Shown here in pieces: positions 1 through 41,221 of a stretch of 64,000 nt of DNA (positions are counted from its first letter, which is position 1; each line of letters begins with the position of its first letter). Origin of the DNA: a phage. The notes below the pieces were generated by a model, which did not search any database, was not told the DNA's origin, and was given only the letters and a program-made list of their open reading frames with translations. Both the position numbers and the translations under genes were made by a program. The DNA is taken from the sequence record PZ445134.1. One strand, 5' to 3'.

Positions 1-654
1 ATGAGTATAATCACCAACTTCTACACCACATTCGTTAGCTATATAATGAAGTAATTTTCCTTGGAGATAAAAATCCAACTGCATAACAACAGCACAGTTC
101 TGAGAACGCATATGACAGTGGGTATAAAGCTTACCATCACGAATATAATAAGTCACTGAGTCAGTACATGGATATTCAAGTGTTTCGTCTGAATCAAGCA
201 AAGCCTGATCAGAACTTTCTAGAATTTGGAACACAACTCTTCGAGAGTTAGGTTTTTCTTTAAGTTCTTTTAGAAGAGTTGGTAACTGGGCCGCAATTCG
301 TGGACCGTAGAAAGTGTTGAAGTTTGCAGGCAAAGCATCTGATTTAGGTTTAGAAATAAATTTAGCGACGTTAGGATATGCCTTAAATGCTTCTTCTGCA
401 TCAGTACCACCAGAAATCATAAATTTCCAGAAATCTTCAGCATATTCATAAGAGATGCGATTAATACGTGGGTCGGTCATTTTGAATGATGAAGGGGTAT
501 CAACAACTACTGTCATAGACCCAATTTCATTACAACGTCCAATACGAGAATCAGTAACGAATTCCGGGTTTTCTAAAATTTCACGATTGACAGCTTTAAA
601 TGCGGATTGAAAATCTGCGGCTTTAATATATTTCATTGTGTTATGTTTTCCCAT
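1..654 (-). CDS. 42: dCMP hydroxymethylase-like (thymidylate-synthase family), 3' end beyond window edge
   Basis: ATG at 654..652 with GAGGT Shine-Dalgarno 4 nt upstream; hand translation MGKHNTMKYIKAADFQ... contains TS-family motifs PNSRR and YPCTDS (catalytic Cys context); sits where gene 42 lies relative to gene 43 in T4. ORF runs off position 1. Confidence 0.6.
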   Translation of the reverse strand, partial: MGKHNTMKYIKAADFQSAFKAVNREILENPEFVTDSRIGRCNEIGSMTVVVDTPSSFKMTDPRINRISYEYAEDFWKFMISGGTDAEEAFKAYPNVAKFISKPKSDALPANFNTFYGPRIAAQLPTLLKELKEKPNSRRVVFQILESSDQALLDSDETLEYPCTDSVTYYIRDGKLYTHCHMRSQNCAVVMQLDFYLQGKLLHYIANECGVEVGDYTH

Positions 655-787
655 GTTTACCTCAATACAGTTATTATATACTCAATTCATAAAGCTTATT
701 TGAATTTCTTAGCGATGTTGATATAACGTAGAGCTTCGGCATCGATACTTCCAAGGACGCTATGAAGGAACGCGTCGACATAGTATT

Positions 788-937
788 CTAGTTGAACAGG
801 TTCTCTTTAATCACTTTAGCCGCTTTAGTTTCAAACAGGCCCATAAGGGCCTTTTTAAGAATTTGTTCGTTGTTGTTAATTTTAATAGTCAAAATCTCTT
901 CGTTAAGTTGGTGGTTAAAAGTTTTTCTAGAAATCAT
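788..937 (-). CDS. small hypothetical protein (~49 aa), coordinates approximate
   Basis: ATG overlaps stop of upstream 386-aa gene (ATGA coupling); below ORF-track size cut-off; contains GGCCC-ATAA-GGGCC hairpin internally. Confidence 0.3.
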   Translation of the reverse strand: MISRKTFNHQLNEEILTIKINNNEQILKKALMGLFETKAAKVIKENLFN

Positions 938-2094
938 TCTGGGTACCTCAAAGCGTCATCAGAGTTAGTTATATCAATAATAGATATAGAGTTTTCCGAT
1001 AACCCATTTTTAGATAACTGACGTTTATAATATCTTTCACAATATGTACACGTCGTCCCACAGATTTCATTAGCACAATCGAAATCTGGATGTTTGAACC
1101 ACCTTTTTTCTAAAAAGCCATCTAACAAAGAGGTTTCAATATTTACCGTATGTGAAAACTCAGTCTCATTTTCAAGAGTGAAAATGGTCTCTAAAGGCTT
1201 CCACAATTCCAACAAATTACCTTCAAATTTTTCAGAAGCATAAGCTTCAAGAACTTTCAAAATGTAGTCTGTGCTACCTGTACGTCCTGAAACTTTGAAT
1301 TGAGTGATACCAATATCATTATAAAGTTTCAAATCTTGAGGACGAACAAAACGAGTTCTCAACCAGTTAAATGGATCTGTATCACGAGCTTTAATACAGT
1401 GCTGCATTGGATATCCATTTAAGGATTTGGCATCATCTACTGTAACATCAGTGCTATGGAAAATATAGCAAGAGTCACGATAACTACAATGTGTTGTATA
1501 CCCTTTACCAGCATTAGAACAGAACTCATTTACAAGAACTTCAAATATTATATTGTTCTTATTACAAAACTCTGCTGCACGCTTCAGGAAAGAAACTGAA
1601 CGGTTCTTATGAATTCCACAGCAGACCTTTTTGATATTATATTGGTCATGCAAGTATTTGATTTGAGTTACAGCATCGACATGTAGAATTGTTGAAACTT
1701 CAATCTCAATGTCTTTATTGACTTCACGAACAATTTCCATAACAACAGGGTTAGCGATAGTAATACGCCAAACGCCTATTGACCAAAGATACTGAACATA
1801 ATCCTGAATAGCTTTCTTCTTCCACTCAACTAGTTCTCTTTTTGAACCAGGATTTATCGTGTTGAGTGTACAGTTAAAGCAAATACCTAATTCGTTACAA
1901 CGTTTAACGTAATCTTCTAACATCTTTTTGTCAACGTCAGGAAGCCTAAAATCAGGTCTGGCTGCTACAAAAGCCATTTCTCTTGTAGAGCCGTATACTT
2001 CGTTTATCAAGCTATTAGGATAAGTTTTATTGAGCTCTACGATTTTATCAAGAAGAGCTAAATCAAAATTCGTTCCGATTTTAAAGGTATTCAT
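934..2094 (-). CDS. Cys-rich 386-aa protein of unknown function; candidate hmC-sugar transferase or Fe-S enzyme
   Basis: ORF track; ATG at 2094; C-terminal cluster CANEICGTTCTYC (C-x4-C-x3-C-x-Y-C) plus internal Cys-rich stretch EFCSNAGKGYTTHCSYRDSC; weak resemblance to U32-family TIM-barrel proteins; last gene of the sugar cassette. Confidence 0.7.
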   Translation of the reverse strand: MNTFKIGTNFDLALLDKIVELNKTYPNSLINEVYGSTREMAFVAARPDFRLPDVDKKMLEDYVKRCNELGICFNCTLNTINPGSKRELVEWKKKAIQDYVQYLWSIGVWRITIANPVVMEIVREVNKDIEIEVSTILHVDAVTQIKYLHDQYNIKKVCCGIHKNRSVSFLKRAAEFCNKNNIIFEVLVNEFCSNAGKGYTTHCSYRDSCYIFHSTDVTVDDAKSLNGYPMQHCIKARDTDPFNWLRTRFVRPQDLKLYNDIGITQFKVSGRTGSTDYILKVLEAYASEKFEGNLLELWKPLETIFTLENETEFSHTVNIETSLLDGFLEKRWFKHPDFDCANEICGTTCTYCERYYKRQLSKNGLSENSISIIDITNSDDALRYPE

Positions 2095-18752: not shown

Positions 18753-19223
18753 TTAATCATGTTTCCACACCCCGTCGGTATTTGTCCAAAGTCGCTGATT
18801 ATCTGATCCTCGCCACAGTTTTTTGGTCGGAAGATTTTTCTCATACTTCCCATCAATAATAACATCAACATATTTAAGCATTTCTAGTTGTTTAATATCT
18901 TCAAACTTATATCCTGTCCACAACCAAATGCTTTTATTGGGATAAAGTTTTTTTACTGTTTGAACAATGCAATGAACAACATCTTGGTTATCAGGATAGA
19001 GAGGGTCTCCTCCAGTTATAGTTAATCCTTCTATATAATCGTTATTCAAACATTCAATTAATTGTTCCAGCGTTTCACCGGTGAATGGGATACCATTTCT
19101 AGCGTTCCATGTTGATTTATTATAACACCCCTCGCATTTATGCAAACAACCTGTAACGAAAAGAACGACCCTGCAACCGGGGCCATTCACAAAATCGCAA
19201 GGATAAAATCTATCATAATTCAT
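18753..19223 (-). CDS. nrdG: anaerobic ribonucleotide reductase activating protein NrdG (radical SAM)
   Basis: 156 aa; CLHKCEGC (Cx3Cx2C) near N-terminus; start overlaps nrdD stop. Confidence 0.9.
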   Translation of the reverse strand: MNYDRFYPCDFVNGPGCRVVLFVTGCLHKCEGCYNKSTWNARNGIPFTGETLEQLIECLNNDYIEGLTITGGDPLYPDNQDVVHCIVQTVKKLYPNKSIWLWTGYKFEDIKQLEMLKYVDVIIDGKYEKNLPTKKLWRGSDNQRLWTNTDGVWKHD

Positions 19224-20518
19224 TGGTGTTTAACCCTATGCATGATTTCTTTATTTTTGCCGAGATTAAATCCGCGTTCGTTCGGATTTCCAAGATAACC
19301 GCATGTTCTTCTTATTGTGTTCATCTTTTTAGGATCAGTTTCTCCGCAAACTGAACAAACAAATCCGTTTTCAGTAGGAGTCATTTCATGAGTACTTCCA
19401 CATGTAAAACATTTATCTACTGGCATATTAACACCAAAATAATCTAAATGTTGTGCAGCATAATCCCATACAGCCTCAAGACCTTTTAGGTTATTTTTCA
19501 TATCAGGAAGTTCAACATAAGAAATGTGACCACCAGTCGCAATGAAATGATATGGCGCTTCACGAGAAATCTTTTCAAACGGAGTAATATTTTCTTCTAC
19601 TGAAACGTGGAAACTATTAGTGTACCAGCCTTTATCAGTAACATCTTTTACACTTCCATATTTTTCGGTATCAAGTTTACAGAAGCGATAGCACAGGTTT
19701 TCAGCAGGAGTAGAATACAAGCTAAAAGCAAAACCGGTTCTTTCAGTCCACTGCTTAAGACGAGCATTCATTTTAGTCAAAATTTCCTGTCCAATATCAC
19801 GTCCGACAAGAATATTCAATTCGTGAATACCAATGTATCCTAAAGACACTGAACTTCTGCCGTTTTTAAATAACTCAATTATATCATCATCAGGTTTAAG
19901 ACGAACCCCAAATGCACCTTCTTGGTAAAGAATAGGAGCAACAGTAGCTTTAACTCCTTTTAAGGAACTAATTCTACACATCAAAGCTTCAAAACACAGA
20001 TCCATTCGTTCATTAAATAGCTCAACAAATTTCTGTTCATTGAATTGTGTTCCAATATAAGAATCTAACGCAATACGAGGAAGATTCAGTGTTACAACAC
20101 CAAGATTATTACGCCCATCAAGAATTTCATTACCAGTCGAATCTTTCCATACGCTCAAAAAACTACGGCAACCCATTGGAGAAACAGGAACAGATGAACC
20201 GGTGATAGCTTTATTATTCTTAACTGAAATAATATCAGGATACATTCTTTTGCTTGCACATTCTAACGCAAGCTGCTTAATATCATAGTTCGGGTCGTCT
20301 TTATAAAGATTAACACCCTCTTCAACGAACATAACAAGTTTAGGGAAAATAGGAGTTATCCCATCGCGACCAAGACCTTTAATACGATTTTTCAGAATTG
20401 CTTTCTGAATCATTCGTTCAGTCCAGTCAGTTCCCGTGCCAAATGTAATGGTTACAAAAGGCGTTTGTCCGTTTGAACTGAAAAGTGTATTTACTTCATC
20501 ATTATATTCAGCATGAGT
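19220..20518 (-). CDS. nrdD: anaerobic ribonucleoside-triphosphate reductase NrdD, exon 2
   Basis: C-terminal glycyl-radical motif RTCGYLG and Zn-ribbon CxxC pairs; 5' boundary is the inferred 3' splice site (approximate). Confidence 0.8.
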   Translation of the reverse strand, partial: THAEYNDEVNTLFSSNGQTPFVTITFGTGTDWTERMIQKAILKNRIKGLGRDGITPIFPKLVMFVEEGVNLYKDDPNYDIKQLALECASKRMYPDIISVKNNKAITGSSVPVSPMGCRSFLSVWKDSTGNEILDGRNNLGVVTLNLPRIALDSYIGTQFNEQKFVELFNERMDLCFEALMCRISSLKGVKATVAPILYQEGAFGVRLKPDDDIIELFKNGRSSVSLGYIGIHELNILVGRDIGQEILTKMNARLKQWTERTGFAFSLYSTPAENLCYRFCKLDTEKYGSVKDVTDKGWYTNSFHVSVEENITPFEKISREAPYHFIATGGHISYVELPDMKNNLKGLEAVWDYAAQHLDYFGVNMPVDKCFTCGSTHEMTPTENGFVCSVCGETDPKKMNTIRRTCGYLGNPNERGFNLGKNKEIMHRVKHQ

Positions 20519-21539
20519 CGCAAATTCATGCCCGTTTATATGAAACAACAAAATTTGGATAGTCCATAGATATGCAACGTTCTTTTATAGTGCTAGGATG
20601 AAAATTTAGCGCTTTAGCTGCTTCTATATAAGACGTATACTTAATACCGTCAACAACCACATATTCAGGAACTTTATGAATAGTAGTCTTAATACTCAAA
20701 ACAAGAGGATGAGTTTCGACTTCACTTTCAGTGCAATTTAAATATTCCGCTGCTTTTTTAAAACTTCTAAAAGTTTTATTTTTAAGCTTTATCGATACTT
20801 GTTTTTTACTTTTTCGACTATTGATATTATTTTGCACATGTTCCTTAGATCTTCTGTTTTTAGCATAATATTCAGCCACAGAAGATTTTATATTGTTTTT
20901 ATGAGATTCGGATAACACTTTACCCTTATGAGCATCTCTTAATTTTTGAATATGTTCTTCAGTATCCGGATGCTTATAAAACTTTTTACCGCCTATGGAT
21001 TTATTTAAACATTTTTTGCTATAAAAATATTTACGTATGACCTCTTCTTCATGTTTTAATGCATCTTTATAACTATCAAATGTTTTTAAAATTATCCATT
21101 TAGTAGGTGTATCAGTTTTTAAGCGTTCATTTATATACTTAGATGACGTTGTGTAAGTTTTCCAGTTTGTGGGCTTGTTTTTAATTGTTCTAAATTTTTT
21201 ATAACCGATATAAATGTCGCCATTAGAAAACTTAACTAAGTATGTAAATGCGTCTTTATCTTTTATTTTAGTACAACGTCTTTTTATCCATTTCATTGTT
21301 TCACCTCGTATTCATAAGATAATCTTATTTATACAAGATGACTGCTGCATGTCGCCATGCAGATTAGACTATATCTTCATCTTTCGATGCCGGCCGTTTC
21401 GAATAGCATTAGCTTCTATTCTACACCGCTACATTCATCACGGTTAGTCGTTAGGCATTTAGTTCAAAAGAACATTTAGCACGGGATTGTCTACTAGAGA
21501 GGTTCCCCGTTTAGACCGGTTTTACATGAGCCTGAATTA
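20519..21539 (-). mobile_element. group I self-splicing intron (T4 sunY/nrdD-type), boundaries approximate
   Basis: Minus-strand core elements in order: P-like UAAACGGGGAACC, Q-like AAUCCCGUGC, R-like AACGACUAA, S-like AAGAUAUAGUCU, and CUGCAUG-GCGA-CAUGCAG hairpin; in-frame UAA at intron start; ORF in 3' part. Confidence 0.7.
20526..21296 (-). CDS. intron-encoded GIY-YIG homing endonuclease (I-TevII-like)
   Basis: 256 aa; N-terminal FTYLVKFSNGDIYIGYKK GIY-YIG motif; NUMOD-like repeats and basic C-terminal DNA-binding region. Confidence 0.8.
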   Translation of the reverse strand: MKWIKRRCTKIKDKDAFTYLVKFSNGDIYIGYKKFRTIKNKPTNWKTYTTSSKYINERLKTDTPTKWIILKTFDSYKDALKHEEEVIRKYFYSKKCLNKSIGGKKFYKHPDTEEHIQKLRDAHKGKVLSESHKNNIKSSVAEYYAKNRRSKEHVQNNINSRKSKKQVSIKLKNKTFRSFKKAAEYLNCTESEVETHPLVLSIKTTIHKVPEYVVVDGIKYTSYIEAAKALNFHPSTIKERCISMDYPNFVVSYKRA

Positions 21540-22082
21540 AATTAACTCATACGCCTGGAATGCATCATATACGTCTTTTTCTGTTTTAGATTGGGCATAA
21601 TTCAACGCATCAGCGATTTGCCATTTTTCTGCATCCTCAATATGTTTTGCATAGGTGCGTTTAACATAAGGAGAAAGTACTTTGTCTACATTAGCAAAAG
21701 TCGTTCCGCCGTATTGATGGGAAGCAACCTGTGCGGTAATTTGTGCCATAATTGCAGTAGCAACACCAATCGATTTAGGCGTTTCAATTTGAGCATTGCC
21801 TAATTTAAATCCATTCTCAAGCATCCCCTTTAAATCGACTAAACAGCAATTAGTAAACGGAAGAGCAGGAGAATAATCAATATCATGCATGTGAATGATT
21901 CCGCTTTCATGCGCATGCATAATAAAAGACGGGACCATATTTTTGGCAATGTGCTTAGACACAATACCAGCCATAAGGTCCCGTTGAGTTGGAAAAACAC
22001 GAGAATCTTTATTAGCATTCTCGTTCAAAAGATCTTTATTAGTTTTATGAATTAATCCTTCAATTTCTTTTTCAATTTTCAT
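21540..22082 (-). CDS. nrdD: anaerobic ribonucleoside-triphosphate reductase NrdD, exon 1
   Basis: 181 aa N-terminal segment; ORF ends at a stop inside the intron; 3' boundary is the inferred 5' splice site. Confidence 0.8.
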
Positions 22083-35252: not shown

Positions 35253-35455
35253 TATTCTTCTACATGTTGTTTACGGCCTTTCTTATCAATAAAGGTATAT
35301 TCAACGAATGTTCCGATGTAGTCTTTATCTACATCATGTGGACTATTAATTGGACATTTGGTACGACAAATGCGTTCCCATTGACGAATAATTACTGCCT
35401 TATTCTTTGGGTCATATGGATGTGGATAATGTATATTCATAATAATGGTTCCCAA
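35228..35455 (-). CDS. hypothetical protein
   Basis: 75 aa ORF. Confidence 0.4.
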   Translation of the reverse strand: MGTIIMNIHYPHPYDPKNKAVIIRQWERICRTKCPINSPHDVDKDYIGTFVEYTFIDKKGRKQHVEEYCLKVTWL

Positions 35456-35934
35456 TCAACAATCACAATTTCTAGTTTAGTGGAATATGTATCTAAAATC
35501 TCTTCGATTATATCCCAGTTTCCACCACCAATACCTGCACCAATTCTTGGCATATAAATTACAGGCTTTGTTATCTTATTCTTTCCGAATTCATTTAATT
35601 CTATTATACAATTCATTAAAGCAGAGTACTCAAAATTAGGTCCCGGCTCAAACTGTGTATAAAGATTAAAGCAATAAGCTTTATGGGTCTTAAAATATTT
35701 TTCATAAACCGAATAAGTCCCGAGTTTAGACTCGTCTCCGAATTCGGTTTGAAGTTTATCGGCTTCTAAAATTTTTGGATAAGCCTTTGCTAATTGTCCT
35801 GCCACACCGGCGCCCATTGTATGAAAACAATTACACCCATGAGCGATATTATTACCTTTAGAAAACAGGGCGACGATATCGCCCTTGATATAGTTTTTAA
35901 TCACTTGCTGCAAGTCCTCTAGTATAAGAGTCAA
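35437..35934 (-). CDS. macro-domain protein (ADP-ribose binding/hydrolase-like)
   Basis: 165 aa; GDIVALFSKGNNIAHGCNCFHTMGAGVAGQLAKAYP aligns with macro motif (N-x-A-N...G-G-G-V-x-G-A-I); distal PRIGAGIGGG. Confidence 0.65.
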   Translation of the reverse strand: MTLILEDLQQVIKNYIKGDIVALFSKGNNIAHGCNCFHTMGAGVAGQLAKAYPKILEADKLQTEFGDESKLGTYSVYEKYFKTHKAYCFNLYTQFEPGPNFEYSALMNCIIELNEFGKNKITKPVIYMPRIGAGIGGGNWDIIEEILDTYSTKLEIVIVDWEPLL

Positions 35935-36244: not shown

Positions 36245-36783
36245 TCTTTTATTTCCAGTAGTTTATTTGATTTAAGGTAATTAGCCTTTTCTAGGACTTC
36301 AGAAGCATATTTACTTCCAGCACTTGTCTTCCATCCCGCATTATATGAGGATATAGCCTTTCTTATATCCCCATTATGTATATTTAACCAATAAGAAAAT
36401 TCGATATAAGCCCATCTGGCTGAATTAGACCGCTTAGATAGCATTTTCTTAATTTGGGCATCAGTCATATTATAACCAAGCTGGTTAATTCTTGCCCTCA
36501 TTGTTGGTAGATAATTTTGGAACATTCCATACGCATGGTGACCTTTCTTATCTTTAAGATTAATACCGGCAGATGATTCCTGCCATAGTATTGCGGCCAT
36601 TATGTATCCAAGTCCTTTCTTATGCATATTTTCATGCGTTTTAAATTTTCCATCCTTAGAAAACTGTTCCCCAAACTGATAAGCATAATTCAAGTTATCG
36701 AGTTGGACATTACTAAAAGTATGCTCGGAGCTATGTGCTGATAATGAAAGAGCAAATAGACCAGCGAGTAGTGCTTTTCTCAT
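36241..36783 (-). CDS. periplasmic lytic transglycosylase-like (SLT-domain) protein
   Basis: 180 aa; signal peptide; AILWQESSAG...GHHAYGMFQ...YNAGW resembles SLT catalytic Glu-Ser and YNxG motifs. Confidence 0.55.
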   Translation of the reverse strand: MRKALLAGLFALSLSAHSSEHTFSNVQLDNLNYAYQFGEQFSKDGKFKTHENMHKKGLGYIMAAILWQESSAGINLKDKKGHHAYGMFQNYLPTMRARINQLGYNMTDAQIKKMLSKRSNSARWAYIEFSYWLNIHNGDIRKAISSYNAGWKTSAGSKYASEVLEKANYLKSNKLLEIKE

Positions 36784-36791
36784 GTTTACCT

Positions 36792-37250
36792 CTAGATTTT
36801 AATCACTGCTTTAGAAGCTTTTCCTGGTAGTCGTTTACTGTTAATAATAGCCATTCTGCATTGAAGAGTCTTCATTTTGAACGCTGGATTTTCGCGACAA
36901 ACTGTAAGTCCTAACCAAAGATTTCCATCAGTTATTTCTAAACGGCCTGGGCGATATTCAACACCTTCGACAAAATCTTCATCAACATCTGGACGTGCCG
37001 GCATTGATAAAAATTCTGCAACTTCTTTAACATGATTTTTTACTTTACGAAATAATTCAAAAACGTAGTTCTCATCTATTTCTCTCTGGATGGCACGATC
37101 TAAGAGATGTTGAGAATACTTGATATGAAAGCCTGGTAGTCCAAGAGACTTTGCAGCATCTTTTATACCGGCATTTATTTTGCGGAACTCCGTTTCAAAG
37201 ATTCGACGGAGTTTATTACGGCGGATAAAAACGTCAGAATTGATAGTCAT
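36792..37250 (-). CDS. regB: endoribonuclease RegB
   Basis: 152 aa; MTINSDVFIRRNKLRR...LQCRMAIINSKRLPGKASKAVIK near-identical to my recall of T4 RegB. Confidence 0.9.
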   Translation of the reverse strand: MTINSDVFIRRNKLRRIFETEFRKINAGIKDAAKSLGLPGFHIKYSQHLLDRAIQREIDENYVFELFRKVKNHVKEVAEFLSMPARPDVDEDFVEGVEYRPGRLEITDGNLWLGLTVCRENPAFKMKTLQCRMAIINSKRLPGKASKAVIKI

Positions 37251-37278
37251 TTTGATTTCTCCTCTAGTTGACAGGTCT

Positions 37279-37307
37279 ATAGTAACACAACTAGAGGAGA
37301 AGTAAAC
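37279..37307 (-). promoter_or_regulatory. T4-type early promoter inside a 13-bp inverted repeat whose 3' arm contains the regB SD
   Basis: Minus strand GTTTAC-17 nt-TACTAT; flanked by UCUCCUCUAGUUG/CAACUAGAGGAGA inverted repeat. Confidence 0.5.
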
Positions 37308-37311
37308 TACT

Positions 37312-37527
37312 TTATTGATAAAATGGAGTTAAAGCCCAAGATTCTTTAGATACCATATCGGCGAAATGCCTCATCTCTTCGATTTGGCGACGACGCTGGT
37401 CAGCGTAGTCTTCTTCGCCTTCTTCCTTACAATCTTCAAGGTCTTCTTCAAGATACTTTAAGTATTCACTACAAATTTTGTTGACCTTTTCTTGAAAGTC
37501 TAATAACCCTGTAATAGTAGAAGCCAT
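37312..37527 (-). CDS. hypothetical protein
   Basis: 71 aa acidic ORF. Confidence 0.45.
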   Translation of the reverse strand: MASTITGLLDFQEKVNKICSEYLKYLEEDLEDCKEEGEEDYADQRRRQIEEMRHFADMVSKESWALTPFYQ

Positions 37528-37793
37528 TAGTATTTTTCCTCAGGTCGAAATACTGCACGACACGCCCACATGCTGGCTTCTTTTAGATGTTGCTTAGCAT
37601 ACTTAAGAGCCTGCACTGCATCCATATCTTCTTTGGTTTGTTGCTCTGATTCATTTTCTTTCAAGATATATGCTTCTTCAATCAGAGCATCAAACATCAA
37701 TCCAAGACGGACTTCTGCATCTTTAATAGCGTTCACTTTACTGATTTTATCGTCGGTATGCGGCTTGTAGCCTTTGATGTCTTCAATCGGCAT
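37527..37793 (-). CDS. hypothetical protein
   Basis: ORF-track 144 aa ORF trimmed to internal ATG to avoid 179-nt overlap with the next ORF. Confidence 0.4.
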   Translation of the reverse strand: MPIEDIKGYKPHTDDKISKVNAIKDAEVRLGLMFDALIEEAYILKENESEQQTKEDMDAVQALKYAKQHLKEASMWACRAVFRPEEKY

Positions 37794-38007
37794 AAGGAAT
37801 TTCCTCATCGGTGGCAAGGTCATATTCGACCAATTGGATAGGCTCATTAATACCATATCCGCGTACAGTGATATCGGTTGACGGATATTTTCCAGTAATA
37901 TCACCCGTTCTAAAGGCTTCAATGAATGATTGCTCGCCTGAGCAACTAAACCAGGCGGCAAAACATTTTAAAACATCTTCAGACCCTTCTATAATCAATT
38001 TAGCCAT
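37783..38007 (-). CDS. hypothetical protein
   Basis: 74 aa ORF; start adjacent to grcA stop. Confidence 0.4.
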   Translation of the reverse strand: MAKLIIEGSEDVLKCFAAWFSCSGEQSFIEAFRTGDITGKYPSTDITVRGYGINEPIQLVEYDLATDEEIPYAD

Positions 38008-38369
38008 TATAGACTCTCAGTAAAGGTACGAGCGATAACGTCGCTCTGTTGTTCTGGAGTCAGAGAGTTAAAGCGAACTGCATAACCGGATACACGAATG
38101 GTCAGCTGAGGATATTTTTCCGGATGCTTAACTGCATCTTCCAGAGTTTCACGACGCAGAACGTTAACGTTCAGGTGTTGACCACCTTCAATTTTAACTT
38201 TAGGTTGATGTTCAATTTCAATTTCACGGGCATTCAAACCGTAGAAAATTTCCGGGTCTACAATAGCGTCTTCTTTAAAAGTCTTAGAGACAATAATCCG
38301 GGCCTGGGTACCGTCTTCAAAATAAATAGTGCCTTTATGCGCACCTTCAAGAATTTGATATGCTTTCAT
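38007..38369 (-). CDS. grcA: autonomous glycyl radical cofactor GrcA/YfiD homolog
   Basis: 120 aa; C-terminal ...[48 protein letters not shown]...ARTFTESL matches my recall of E. coli GrcA glycyl-radical domain (RVSGYAV). Confidence 0.85.
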
Positions 38370-38375
38370 ATAACC

Positions 38376-38684
38376 TCAATTAGAAAATAAATTTATCCAA
38401 GTTTTTTCTTTAATCAAAAATGGGTCGGAATTAAACGCCATTAAACTTTGAGTGATTAATCCTTTAAATGACCCATCAATAAATTCCATTTTGAAATGCG
38501 GAATACTAGTCATCAACCGTGCATTAGGAGCAGTACAAAGAACCTGCCGACCTGCGAATGGACCTTTAGTCAAACGATATCGTTTAGGTTTAAAATGGTA
38601 GATCTCGTAATTTTCTACAAGAGCCCTTTTATTGCATACTGGGCTGTTATAACAATACTCAAAAACTTCAATAGTGGTCATCAT
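38376..38684 (-). CDS. hypothetical protein
   Basis: Start at ATGATGA overlap with upstream stop. Confidence 0.45.
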   Translation of the reverse strand: MMTTIEVFEYCYNSPVCNKRALVENYEIYHFKPKRYRLTKGPFAGRQVLCTAPNARLMTSIPHFKMEFIDGSFKGLITQSLMAFNSDPFLIKEKTWINLFSN

Positions 38685-39220
38685 TGCATTCCAATCACAA
38701 AAAATTGAGGACGAGCAATACCGCCGATGCAATATTTGCTTTTGCAACAGTGTTGGACTGTTTTAATATGTATGTTGTAAATCTTATCCATATCAGGAGC
38801 TTTAATAGGCTCGTCAATTATATACAGAATACGAGAAAGCGTTAATCCACGGAATTTAGAACCTTCATTGCCAATAAAACTACGGACAGAATCAGTAAAT
38901 AAACGGAATCGAATATCGTCGCTAGAATAACGAGAAAATTCTTTTTTAATGTTGCCAACAGAAATTTTAGCATAGGCTGAAGTATTAGAAAGAACAATAA
39001 CTGTTCCACCGTCATACAGCCAATTAACAGCAAAATTAGTTACTGCAGTCGATTTACCCGATTGTCTGCCGCCGTCTAAACGAAGTGTACAGTACTGCTT
39101 GAGTACGTCTTCAAATGGTGGGGCATAACCGTTCTTACAAATTTCTTCTACTCTAGCATCAGAATGGTGTGTAAAAGCATTCATCAGGGATAGATAAGGT
39201 CCAGTTAAAAATGTTCTCAT
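38681..39220 (-). CDS. P-loop NTPase-like hypothetical protein
   Basis: Start at ATG 39220 (MRTFLTGPYL) with SD; GGRQSGKST Walker-A-like; ORF-track start 39337 runs through the upstream promoter. Confidence 0.5.
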   Translation of the reverse strand: MRTFLTGPYLSLMNAFTHHSDARVEEICKNGYAPPFEDVLKQYCTLRLDGGRQSGKSTAVTNFAVNWLYDGGTVIVLSNTSAYAKISVGNIKKEFSRYSSDDIRFRLFTDSVRSFIGNEGSKFRGLTLSRILYIIDEPIKAPDMDKIYNIHIKTVQHCCKSKYCIGGIARPQFFVIGMQ

Positions 39221-39392
39221 TTTATTCTCTCTAGGTTTGGGCCGTTCCGTGGCACATGTTAGGTCCTTCGCCTCGCTATGTAAACCCATTACCGCACTTG
39301 GGCTCGACCTTATTACAGGTTGGAAAAGGTACATCACTCAGAGGACTCGACGTTCGTAAGGAGAGGTTGCGTTTCCCTTTATTAGGCAAGAA

Positions 39393-39722
39393 TTATACTC
39401 TAGGCTTTTGAGCTTGTTTGGTATTGGATTCCCATGCGGCTTTGGTAATTTTGTTAGCGGCATAACCAAAGGCACTAGATAGAACACCTTTAGAGTTGAA
39501 TACATCCAATCCAATAAGTACGCCGGCTGTGCTAAATTTAGGAGCAAAGTACGCATTAGTTTTAGAAAGAGCTTTTTTCAATTCAGGGTCTTGAACCAAG
39601 CCATCAAAAACGCCTTTACTATTTACTTTATATGTTACTTTGGGATTTTTAGCTTCTTCGATAGCAGCTTTCTGTTCTGCAGATAATGTAACTTCAGTGA
39701 TAAACTCTTGATATGTTTTCAT
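39393..39722 (-). CDS. internal-protein-like protein with capsid-targeting sequence
   Basis: Starts MKTYQEFITE (T4 IP N-terminal targeting/cleavage signal); ORF-track N-terminal extension discarded. Confidence 0.65.
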   Translation of the reverse strand: MKTYQEFITEVTLSAEQKAAIEEAKNPKVTYKVNSKGVFDGLVQDPELKKALSKTNAYFAPKFSTAGVLIGLDVFNSKGVLSSAFGYAANKITKAAWESNTKQAQKPRV

Positions 39723-39834
39723 TTTGTTCTCTCTAAATTTGGGCCATGGAATGGCCCATGAATTGTCCATTTCTGTATTTACCACTCCAAGTAATTATGA
39801 ATATACTATCACAATTTTAGGAGAAAGTAAACTG

Positions 39835-40137
39835 TTATTTACCTTTAATTACTTTAGCTGCTTCGATAGCCGCTTGCTGAAGGTCATCCATAGACATACC
39901 GAATTTAGAAGCAAAGTTATCAATTTTCTTTTCGACAGCATTCAAAGGCTTGGCCTGTTTACCTTCATTAGCGCCAGGAAGAGCGAGAATACGCTCTTTG
40001 TCAATATAAAGGCTTACAAGTTTCTTACGGTCTTTATCGGACAAATCATGAAATGAATGGGCCTTTTTATTTATAGCGGATTCTAATTTACCTGCACTCA
40101 CTCGCGCTTCTGCAATAAATTCTTTATACGTTTTCAT
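39835..40137 (-). CDS. internal-protein-like protein with capsid-targeting sequence
   Basis: Starts MKTYKEFIAEA; 100 aa. Confidence 0.65.
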   Translation of the reverse strand: MKTYKEFIAEARVSAGKLESAINKKAHSFHDLSDKDRKKLVSLYIDKERILALPGANEGKQAKPLNAVEKKIDNFASKFGMSMDDLQQAAIEAAKVIKGK

Positions 40138-40200
40138 TTTTGTTTCCTTGTTTGTTTTGATAGAGTAATTATACCATATTAATACTTAAGCGTAAACTGT

Positions 40201-40461
40201 TTAAGCTTTACCGCCAGAAATAATTCCGAAGTTGTTAAAATCGTATCCAATATCGTCAACATCTACTTTAGGGCTTGCTACAACATAAGCAATTTCACTA
40301 CGTTTTGCATAGGTGTTGATTTCTTTACCATCGCCACCTAAGAAAGAATACCCATTACGTTTTAATGAGCCAAAGTCTTCCGCATCACCAATGAAAGCTT
40401 TAACTTTAAATTTATGACCTTTGGCATCTGCTTCAGCGATAAATTCTTGATACATTTTCAT
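40201..40461 (-). CDS. internal-protein-like protein with capsid-targeting sequence
   Basis: Starts MKMYQEFIAEA; 86 aa. Confidence 0.65.
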   Translation of the reverse strand: MKMYQEFIAEADAKGHKFKVKAFIGDAEDFGSLKRNGYSFLGGDGKEINTYAKRSEIAYVVASPKVDVDDIGYDFNNFGIISGGKA

Positions 40462-40467
40462 TTTTCC

Positions 40468-40881
40468 TTAGTAAATTGATTTACCATAGTATTTGTACCA
40501 AGTAGGACGTTGGGCAATTTTTTCGTCTAAGCGTGCTTGACTTATCGCAATGGACGCTTCGGACGGGACATAATTATTACGAAATTCGGCAGGGATGTCG
40601 GAAATATCCTGGACAGTCGTGTCCTTGATTTTGAAACCACGTTTCAAGCATTCAGCGATTAGCTCGATTTGTCGTAAACGTAAAAATTCGAGTTTGTCGT
40701 AAAAGAATGTTACGTGACCTGTGCCTAAGATAAATGTTGGAGAGATTTTAAAATCCTTTACACGTTTACCGTTTTGAACATGTTTACGGACTGCACCAAA
40801 TACGCGTGGTAATTCACGATACTCAGCCATAAGATGTTGGTCGGTCAGTTCAGAAACAAGTGTTAAATTGATACGAGTCAT
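40468..40881 (-). CDS. denV: endonuclease V (pyrimidine-dimer DNA glycosylase) DenV
   Basis: [34 protein letters not shown]... near-identical to my recall of T4 DenV; start at internal ATG. Confidence 0.9.
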
Positions 40882-40908
40882 AATTTCCTCCAAGTAGTTG
40901 ATGAATGT

Positions 40909-40938
40909 ATAGTATCAAAGTCCTTGGAGGAAGTAAAC
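40909..40938 (-). promoter_or_regulatory. T4-type early promoter inside inverted repeat (denV)
   Basis: Minus strand GTTTAC-18 nt-TACTAT flanked by UUCCUCCAAG/CUUGGAGGAA inverted repeat; 3' arm is the SD. Confidence 0.5.
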
Positions 40939-40939
40939 A

Positions 40940-41221
40940 CTATTTTTCTGAAGCGCCTGAAATATATTTTTCAAGACGTTGTTTCATTAGCGAGCCGTTC
41001 TTAGCGATTTCTTCCGGTTTATCGCACATACGCAACAAGGCTTCAAGCTTAACGATATCACTGGTGCGCTCAAATTTGCGAGTATCTATCTTACTAGCAA
41101 GTTCAGAAATACGTGCTAATAGACTTTCGGCTTCAACCAAAGCTGCACCTAGCTTAGTTGCAAATGTGTCAGTAGCTTCGTTAAGAATAGATTCTGATAA
41201 AAATTCACTATATGTTTTCAT
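40940..41221 (-). CDS. internal-protein-like protein with capsid-targeting sequence
   Basis: Starts [10 protein letters not shown]; start overlaps lysozyme stop (ATGA). Confidence 0.6.

Follow-up and report, generated by a model that had tools for sequence, protein, structure and literature searches.

The minus strand of the window, by which we mean the whole 64,000-nt stretch of phage DNA analyzed here, carries an intact, ATG-started open reading frame of 120 codons followed by a TAA stop, evident both in the ORF list and on direct reading of the sequence (Table 1). The surrounding 3.5 kb share 97.3% identity with Shigella phage phi25-307, over their full length, and with RB69, over 92% of the query, and the gene order tk, tk.4, vs, vs.1, regB, vs.4, vs.5, vs.6, vs.7, vs.8, denV, e is that of RB69 and T4. 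The window is that of an RB69-like Mosigvirus, a coliphage of the T4/RB69 type, and the reading frame is its vs.6. The gene stands alone, with its own Shine-Dalgarno sequence and start codon and with separate genes, vs.7 and vs.5, on either side, and forms part of a tightly packed same-strand string, vs.8-vs.7-vs.6-vs.5-vs.4. As read from the sequence, its Shine-Dalgarno element overlaps the TGA stop of vs.7 and its own stop overlaps the start codon of vs.5 as TAATG, while its last three codons, identical to those of RB69, hold a GAGAG ribosome-binding stretch for vs.5. A promoter and terminator scan of positions 36500..41000 found promoter-like sites no more common than in shuffled sequence (13 vs. 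13.4), and we therefore claim no transcription unit around vs.6.

Two neighboring genes carry recognizable domains of their own. Two genes downstream, vs.4 matches the Acb2/Tad1 hairpin domain (Pfam PF24729, E = 3.2e-17), a family whose name points to phage anti-defense sponge proteins (anti-CBASS/anti-Thoeris); its product is 144 aa long when read from an upstream TTG, as in the mechanical ORF list, and 88 aa from the RB69-equivalent start. The product of tk.4 contains a Macro domain (PF01661, E = 1.7e-6) and is annotated as an A1pp phosphatase in RB69 and T4.

Table 1. Features of the vs.6 locus and of the other genes discussed, in window coordinates
Feature	Position	Strand	Basis or remark
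vs.6 (phage grcA) coding sequence	38007..38369	-	ORF, Pfam, NCBIfam, synteny with RB69 and T4
GAGG Shine-Dalgarno sequence of vs.6	38374..38377	-	Sequence reading; 4 nt upstream of ATG
vs.6 codons 1-60, phage-type N-terminal half	38190..38369	-	Alignment, blastn, GC3
vs.6 codons 61-117, host-type block encoding the structured glycyl-radical domain	38019..38189	-	166/171 nt identical to E. coli grcA
RVSGYAV glycyl-radical motif, residues 92-98	38076..38096	-	Translation and alignment
Radical glycine G95, codon GGT	38085..38087	-	Corresponds to GrcA G102 and PFL G734
vs.6 codons 118-120 (GAG AGT CTA) and TAA, phage-type tail	38007..38018	-	3/9 nt differ from E. coli
vs.4	37527..37793	-	Acb2/Tad1 hairpin domain
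tk.4	35437..35934	-	Macro domain
nrdD, both pieces	19220..22082	-
nrdD, first piece	21537..22082	-	NrdD family positions 104-282
Homing-endonuclease ORF	20526..21296		GIY-YIG/NUMOD1
nrdD, second piece	19220..20551	-	Pfam NRDD positions 145-562 and Gly_radical domain

Domain assignment and distribution of vs.6

At the protein level vs.6 is an autonomous glycyl-radical protein of the GrcA/YfiD type, as originally predicted, an assignment in which domain, family and structure matches agree with the RB69/T4 synteny. The Gly_radical domain (Pfam PF01228) is matched at E = 2.8e-18 (66.8 bits vs. a cutoff of 22.2), the closest solved structure is that of E. coli GrcA (PDB 6OWR, E = 1.5e-41), the protein also aligns to residues 696-759 of E. 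coli pyruvate formate-lyase (PFL; E = 4.6e-26), and phrog_1209 is matched over the full length (residues 1-120, E = 3e-62). By far the best NCBIfam match is the GrcA equivalog TIGR04365 (156.6 bits, E = 3.4e-46, residues 18-120), with a score that falls 13 bits under the 170-bit cutoff because the N-terminal half has diverged.

The RVSGYAV motif and its radical glycine, both named in the original prediction, are in place (Table 1). The near-identity to E. coli GrcA that it ascribed to the C-terminal ~70 residues is true of the last 60, where residues 61-120, starting at the equivalent of YfiD residue 68, match GrcA 68-127 at all but one position (59/60, the sole change being R109S), but drops to 62 of 71 when residues 50-120 are aligned codon by codon. 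Agreement of this extent goes well beyond chance and extends to the DNA. Over residues 1-44 only 15 of 43 positions are identical (~35%), and the N-terminal half has in common with GrcA the short motifs ARxIVxK and FxED and an HMM alignment reaching back to residue 18. The exact 120-aa sequence with S109 is absent from a collection of ~15 billion proteins, and its best match in the phage database is 99.2% identical.

The gene itself is not new: vs.6 is a known, annotated and widespread phage gene. RefSeq and Swiss-Prot name the RB69 and T4 orthologs GrcA, the window protein is 93% identical to T4 vs.6 (UniProt P13316, GRCA_BPT4), and a translated search found homologs in 1,589 phage records, with identities of 57-99% in T4-like phages of the T-even, Klebsiella, Enterobacter and Aeromonas groups and ~53% in T5-like phages. 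In the comparative study of Nolan et al. (2006, PMC1524935) the gene also belongs to a small set of ORFs shared by T4 and five divergent T4-like genomes. Biochemical work on phage GrcA, as vs.6 or Y06I, dates back to 2001 and reference genomes already annotate the gene, so the gene call adds nothing to existing knowledge; the original prediction had overlooked both this annotation and the work on the T4 ortholog.

Database labels for the family are uneven. PHROGs v4 lists phrog_1209 as 'unknown function' although its T4 member was characterized biochemically in 2001, homologs in phage records are variously labeled hypothetical protein, pyruvate formate-lyase, 2-ketobutyrate formate-lyase or acetyltransferase-related, and the protein cluster of T4 vs.6 includes records labeled E. 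coli, Salmonella and Enterococcus on phage-size or very small contigs. Conversely, one IMG/VR 'viral' contig has a bacterial-type grcA closest to that of Yersinia and others (L158-L168) carry pflB, either full-length (L160, L163 and L165; 760 aa) or as 3'-end pieces at contig ends, hinting that 'viral' bins include host DNA; assemblies of Vagococcus sp. WN89Y and Martelella alba with an enterobacterial-type grcA likewise suggest contamination or mislabeling. Gene neighborhoods vary as well: in Aeromonas phage 31 and T5-like Bf23 the grcA homolog is found within the phage tRNA gene cluster or at its edge, a setting that differs from the regB-denV interval of T-even phages.

Function and a possible link to NrdD

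E. coli YfiD and a ~14 kDa T4 protein, Y06I, are activated by PFL activase and restore oxygen-cleaved PFL in vitro (Wagner et al. 2001, via Andorfer et al. 2021, PMC8683613), and the two are, in the latter account, the only validated spare-part proteins. The agreement in size, name and Swiss-Prot entry suggests that Y06I is T4 vs.6. The predicted rescue of cleaved PFL is thus borne out in vitro for the T4 ortholog, and the window allele, at 93% identity to T4 vs.6 and with a radical module 98% identical to that of GrcA, probably shares this spare-part function. Oxygen would cleave host PFL at its radical glycine G734; the N-terminal half of the vs.6 protein would then help it dock on the cleaved enzyme, with its C-terminal domain (residues ~54-120) supplying a new radical loop and helix in place of the lost PFL glycyl-radical domain, and host PflA would install a new radical on G95, returning PFL to activity. 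For the phage, the benefit may lie in sustained output of acetyl-CoA, ATP and formate under the microaerobic conditions of the gut, where formate from rescued PFL could feed NrdD, the class III ribonucleotide reductase that the phage itself encodes. For vs.6 mutants, the searchable literature yielded no in vivo phenotype.

The same NrdD has also been considered as the direct client, both in the original prediction and here: vs.6 could serve as a spare glycyl-radical domain for the phage reductase, possibly activated by phage NrdG. The window does encode NrdD, with a Gly_radical domain of its own, together with NrdG; grcA lies beside or between the two genes in Aeromonas phage 65 (nrdD-nrdG-grcA, 1..1722 of locus L008) and in three RaK2-like jumbo contigs of ~350 kb (nrdD-grcA-nrdG), and the study that noted the Gly_radical domain in vs.6 suggested a role in nucleotide metabolism (Nolan et al. 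2006, PMC1524935). However, a BLASTP comparison of vs.6 with the NrdD of the window gives E = 1.7 and an alignment outside the radical site, with no similarity to the NrdD radical region. The radical module is instead of the PFL/GrcA type, virtually that of GrcA and nearest to PFL 696-759, whereas in NrdD the radical domain bears another motif together with a zinc site. The only activity demonstrated for the T4 ortholog, moreover, is that with PFL and PFL activase (PMC8683613). We therefore regard a direct role at NrdD as improbable, and this part of the original prediction finds no support in the sequence.

A connection through formate, with vs.6 acting as a spare part for PFL, is plausible. 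Formate is the reductant of characterized class III NrdDs, that of T4 included (PMC4493059), nrdD is present in every sampled GrcA-bearing phage lineage, and the location of grcA inside the nrdD-nrdG cluster of two other lineages fits a supply of formate to NrdD by PFL, which would offer a rationale for enteric phages to keep grcA. In T-even phages grcA lies ~17 kb from nrdD. The nrdD of the window is itself in two pieces with a homing-endonuclease ORF between them (Table 1); an Rfam search found no group I intron in the split gene, so that a free-standing endonuclease appears to divide it, and related phages carry the annotations 'NrdD' and 'homing endonuclease' side by side.

It is also conceivable that vs.6 acts as a decoy or modulator that soaks up PflA or occupies PFL and so redirects host fermentation. 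The N-terminal half, which in YfiD governs the binding to cleaved PFL, is strongly diverged yet under purifying selection (6 nonsynonymous vs. 11 synonymous codon differences between T4 and RB69), and this divergence leaves room for altered binding behavior; but all phage copies retain the catalytic module in full, radical glycine included, which a pure decoy would not need, and the T4 ortholog reconstituted PFL activity in vitro (PMC8683613), making such a role very unlikely.

A host-type block in a phage gene

Phage and host copies hardly vary over the last 60 residues, so that protein identity alone says nothing about the age of the gene; the DNA is more telling. In blastn searches the C-terminal 180 nt of vs.6 (codons 61-120) hit grcA in each of 5,426 E. 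coli genomes, whereas the 180 nt of codons 1-60 find no match in any of them. Identity to E. coli grcA over codons 61-117 is 166/171 nt in the window (97.1%), 169/171 in RB69, 170/171 in T4 and 171/171 in two T-even contigs from IMG/VR (L090 and L092), where Citrobacter amalonaticus, the nearest other genus among the matches listed, is 92.8% identical to E. coli over the last 180 nt of grcA, with 13 silent differences. Codon usage divides the gene at the same place. Within codons 61-120, 52 of the 59 codons that specify the same residue as in E. coli are also the same codon, against 24.6 expected and a maximum of 42 in 200,000 simulations drawn from the phage's own codon usage, and CTG, which makes up 10% of phage leucine codons, is used for all five leucines of the block but for neither of the two in the N-terminal half, whose GC3 is 0.28.

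The alignment and codon comparison proposed as a check in the original prediction therefore gives a split answer, host-like in the block and only 15/43 identical over residues 1-44. The 5' limit of the block lies close to the domain boundary of YfiD, a protein whose disordered residues 1-60 assist in binding and activation and whose structured radical domain spans residues 61-127 (PMC8683613). In the best reading of these patterns, codons 61-117 would be E. coli grcA sequence acquired by host-to-phage homologous recombination, the radical module of an old phage gene having been replaced by host DNA. T4 readily recombines with homologous DNA in the infected cell, as in marker rescue, and it is on this capacity that the proposed mechanism is based. 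Taken together, the window ORF is very probably the RB69-type allele of T4 vs.6, an autonomous glycyl-radical cofactor encoded by an old gene of the T4 family that is mosaic with a block of E. coli grcA.

Two other sources were considered and rejected: pflB as donor, ruled out in favor of grcA by the residues that separate PflB from GrcA (TKEQQQDVITRTFTQSM in the comparison), and an assembly chimera or host contamination, since the same mosaic is found in T4, RB69 and many independent genomes.

The identity could also have arisen without any transfer, through convergent codon optimization or selection on silent sites: E. coli grcA is highly expressed and codon-biased, and selection for high expression in E. 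coli could move a phage gene toward the same preferred codons. Yet the phage block repeats even the irregular choices of E. coli (CAC then CAT, AAG then AAA, CAA then CAG), which rules out convergent optimization, and the match extends to non-preferred or mixed codons (CAA, AAG, CAT, TAT and TTT, with CGT alternating with CGC and ACT with ACC). Silent sites in the block are, moreover, free to vary. Citrobacter and Trabulsiella encode the same protein block with 13-14 synonymous codons unlike those of E. coli, and the same holds for other phage lineages, with 21 silent codon differences in KP182 and 28 in RB43 over codons 61-117 and 21 in T5-like Bf23 over codons 61-120, RB43 and Bf23 being E. 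coli phages themselves. In the RB69 clade silent changes private to one copy build up in the block no more slowly than in the N-terminal half (7 nt vs. 4 nt between the window and RB69), so neither silent-site constraint nor slow evolution explains its likeness to E. coli, and the four silent changes of the window (CCG to CCT, ATC to ATT, CCG to CCA and CAG to CAA) all lead away from host codons to A/T-ending codons preferred by the phage. We accordingly give convergence very little credit.

Between phage lineages the block shows 19-30 synonymous against 1-3 nonsynonymous codon differences and is, on these counts, under purifying selection. RB43 and the T5-like phages keep it in phage-type codons, so conversion to the host type is not universal. 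Recent capture of the whole gene from an enterobacterial host, as the original prediction had it, accounts for the 97-100% DNA identity and host codons of the C-terminal 57 codons but is next to impossible to reconcile with an N-terminal half that is phage-type in composition and common to Klebsiella-phage and RB43-type copies, with the phage-type last three codons, and with the conservation of vs.6 in six divergent T4-like genomes and in phage records that include T5-like ones; what survives of that claim is the block.

Age, possible recurrence and known parallels

The two parts of the gene also differ in their history. T4-type and RB69-type N-terminal halves form two clades 18-22 nt apart, whereas the blocks radiate star-like from the E. 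coli allele: each has 0-5 changes of its own, the T4/RB69 division is absent, and an RB69-type and a T4-type contig (L090 and L092, respectively) have the same block sequence. T4 and RB69 differ silently at 11 of the 60 N-terminal codons and at none of the 57 in the block (Fisher p = 6e-4). A neighbor-joining tree of the block, whose bacterial sample included no Klebsiella among the matches listed, places the T-even phages and E. coli in one clade (94.5% bootstrap) inside the Enterobacteriaceae. Judged by these sequences, the block postdates the T4/RB69 split at the vs.6 locus, through either repeated conversion from E. coli or a single conversion whose product then passed among T-even phages. 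In the window, whose block is one of the more drifted copies, codons 61-117 would thus have been replaced after the T4-type and RB69-type lineages diverged, the four silent changes and R109S being later gains.

A second case may be found in Klebsiella phage KP182. Its N-terminal half is phage-type (73% nucleotide identity to the window) with a GC3 of 0.23, against 0.61 in its block, where five of six leucines are encoded by CTG; the block limits, codons 61 and 117, are those of the T-even phages. Residues L77 and E81 (LLDAVEH) are the states found in GrcAs of Enterobacter, Phytobacter and related bacteria and not in that of E. coli, and in the tree the block nests among these genera. Composition, diagnostic residues and tree position, in a comparison that included no Klebsiella grcA, are suggestive of an independently acquired block of Klebsiella/Enterobacter type.

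With at least two apparently independent host-type blocks sharing the same limits (T-even and KP182), and with grcA embedded in the nrdD-nrdG clusters of two other phage lineages, we tentatively raise a broader possibility, to which we assign a minority of the probability: that the radical module is repeatedly overwritten from the grcA of the resident host during infection, through homologous recombination amounting to marker rescue off the chromosome, so that the spare part would always match the PFL and PflA of the current host while the N-terminal half stays phage-specific, with PFL-derived formate for the phage NrdD as the payoff. The mosaic and the association with nrdD are the only parts of the present analysis for which we could not find a description; in the searchable literature, as far as it extended short of the main T4 reviews, neither an account of the vs.6/yfiD mosaic nor a paper proposing a link between phage GrcA, formate and NrdD was found. 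So clean a domain-level mosaic, with 171 nt of host sequence corresponding to one domain in a strictly lytic phage whose DNA is modified, may merit a short note, and offers a tractable natural system in which to measure host-to-phage gene conversion.

The closest known counterpart, T4 vs.6, is like the window gene in position, in its length of 120 aa and in its mosaic with an E. coli-type block. The N-terminal halves of the two differ at 22 nt and 7 nonsynonymous codons, and within the block the window has R109S and its silent changes where T4 has R73H. E. coli GrcA/YfiD (6OWR) is likewise a small stand-alone protein with a C-terminal glycyl-radical domain and the same proposed mechanism; vs.6 is 7 residues shorter, and its N-terminal half appears homologous to that of GrcA in outline (HMM residues 18-120), at ~35% amino acid identity and with no similarity in DNA. 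The genomic settings differ too, E. coli grcA lying between ung and eamB and vs.6 in the early-region gene string of a lytic phage. The C-terminal domain of PflB (PDB 1H16, residues 696-759) has the same fold element and glycyl-radical motif as the vs.6 block but is part of a 759-residue enzyme, and would be what the stand-alone vs.6 protein replaces.

For the mosaic itself, the nearest parallel is the psbA gene of cyanophages, which has reportedly undergone intragenic recombination between host and phage and become mosaic with host-like patches. Both are phage-carried metabolic genes that exchange segments with the host copy, but gene, hosts and phages are different, and in vs.6, unlike psbA, the patch corresponds to a single structural domain, and in some T-even phages all of its 171 nt are those of the host.
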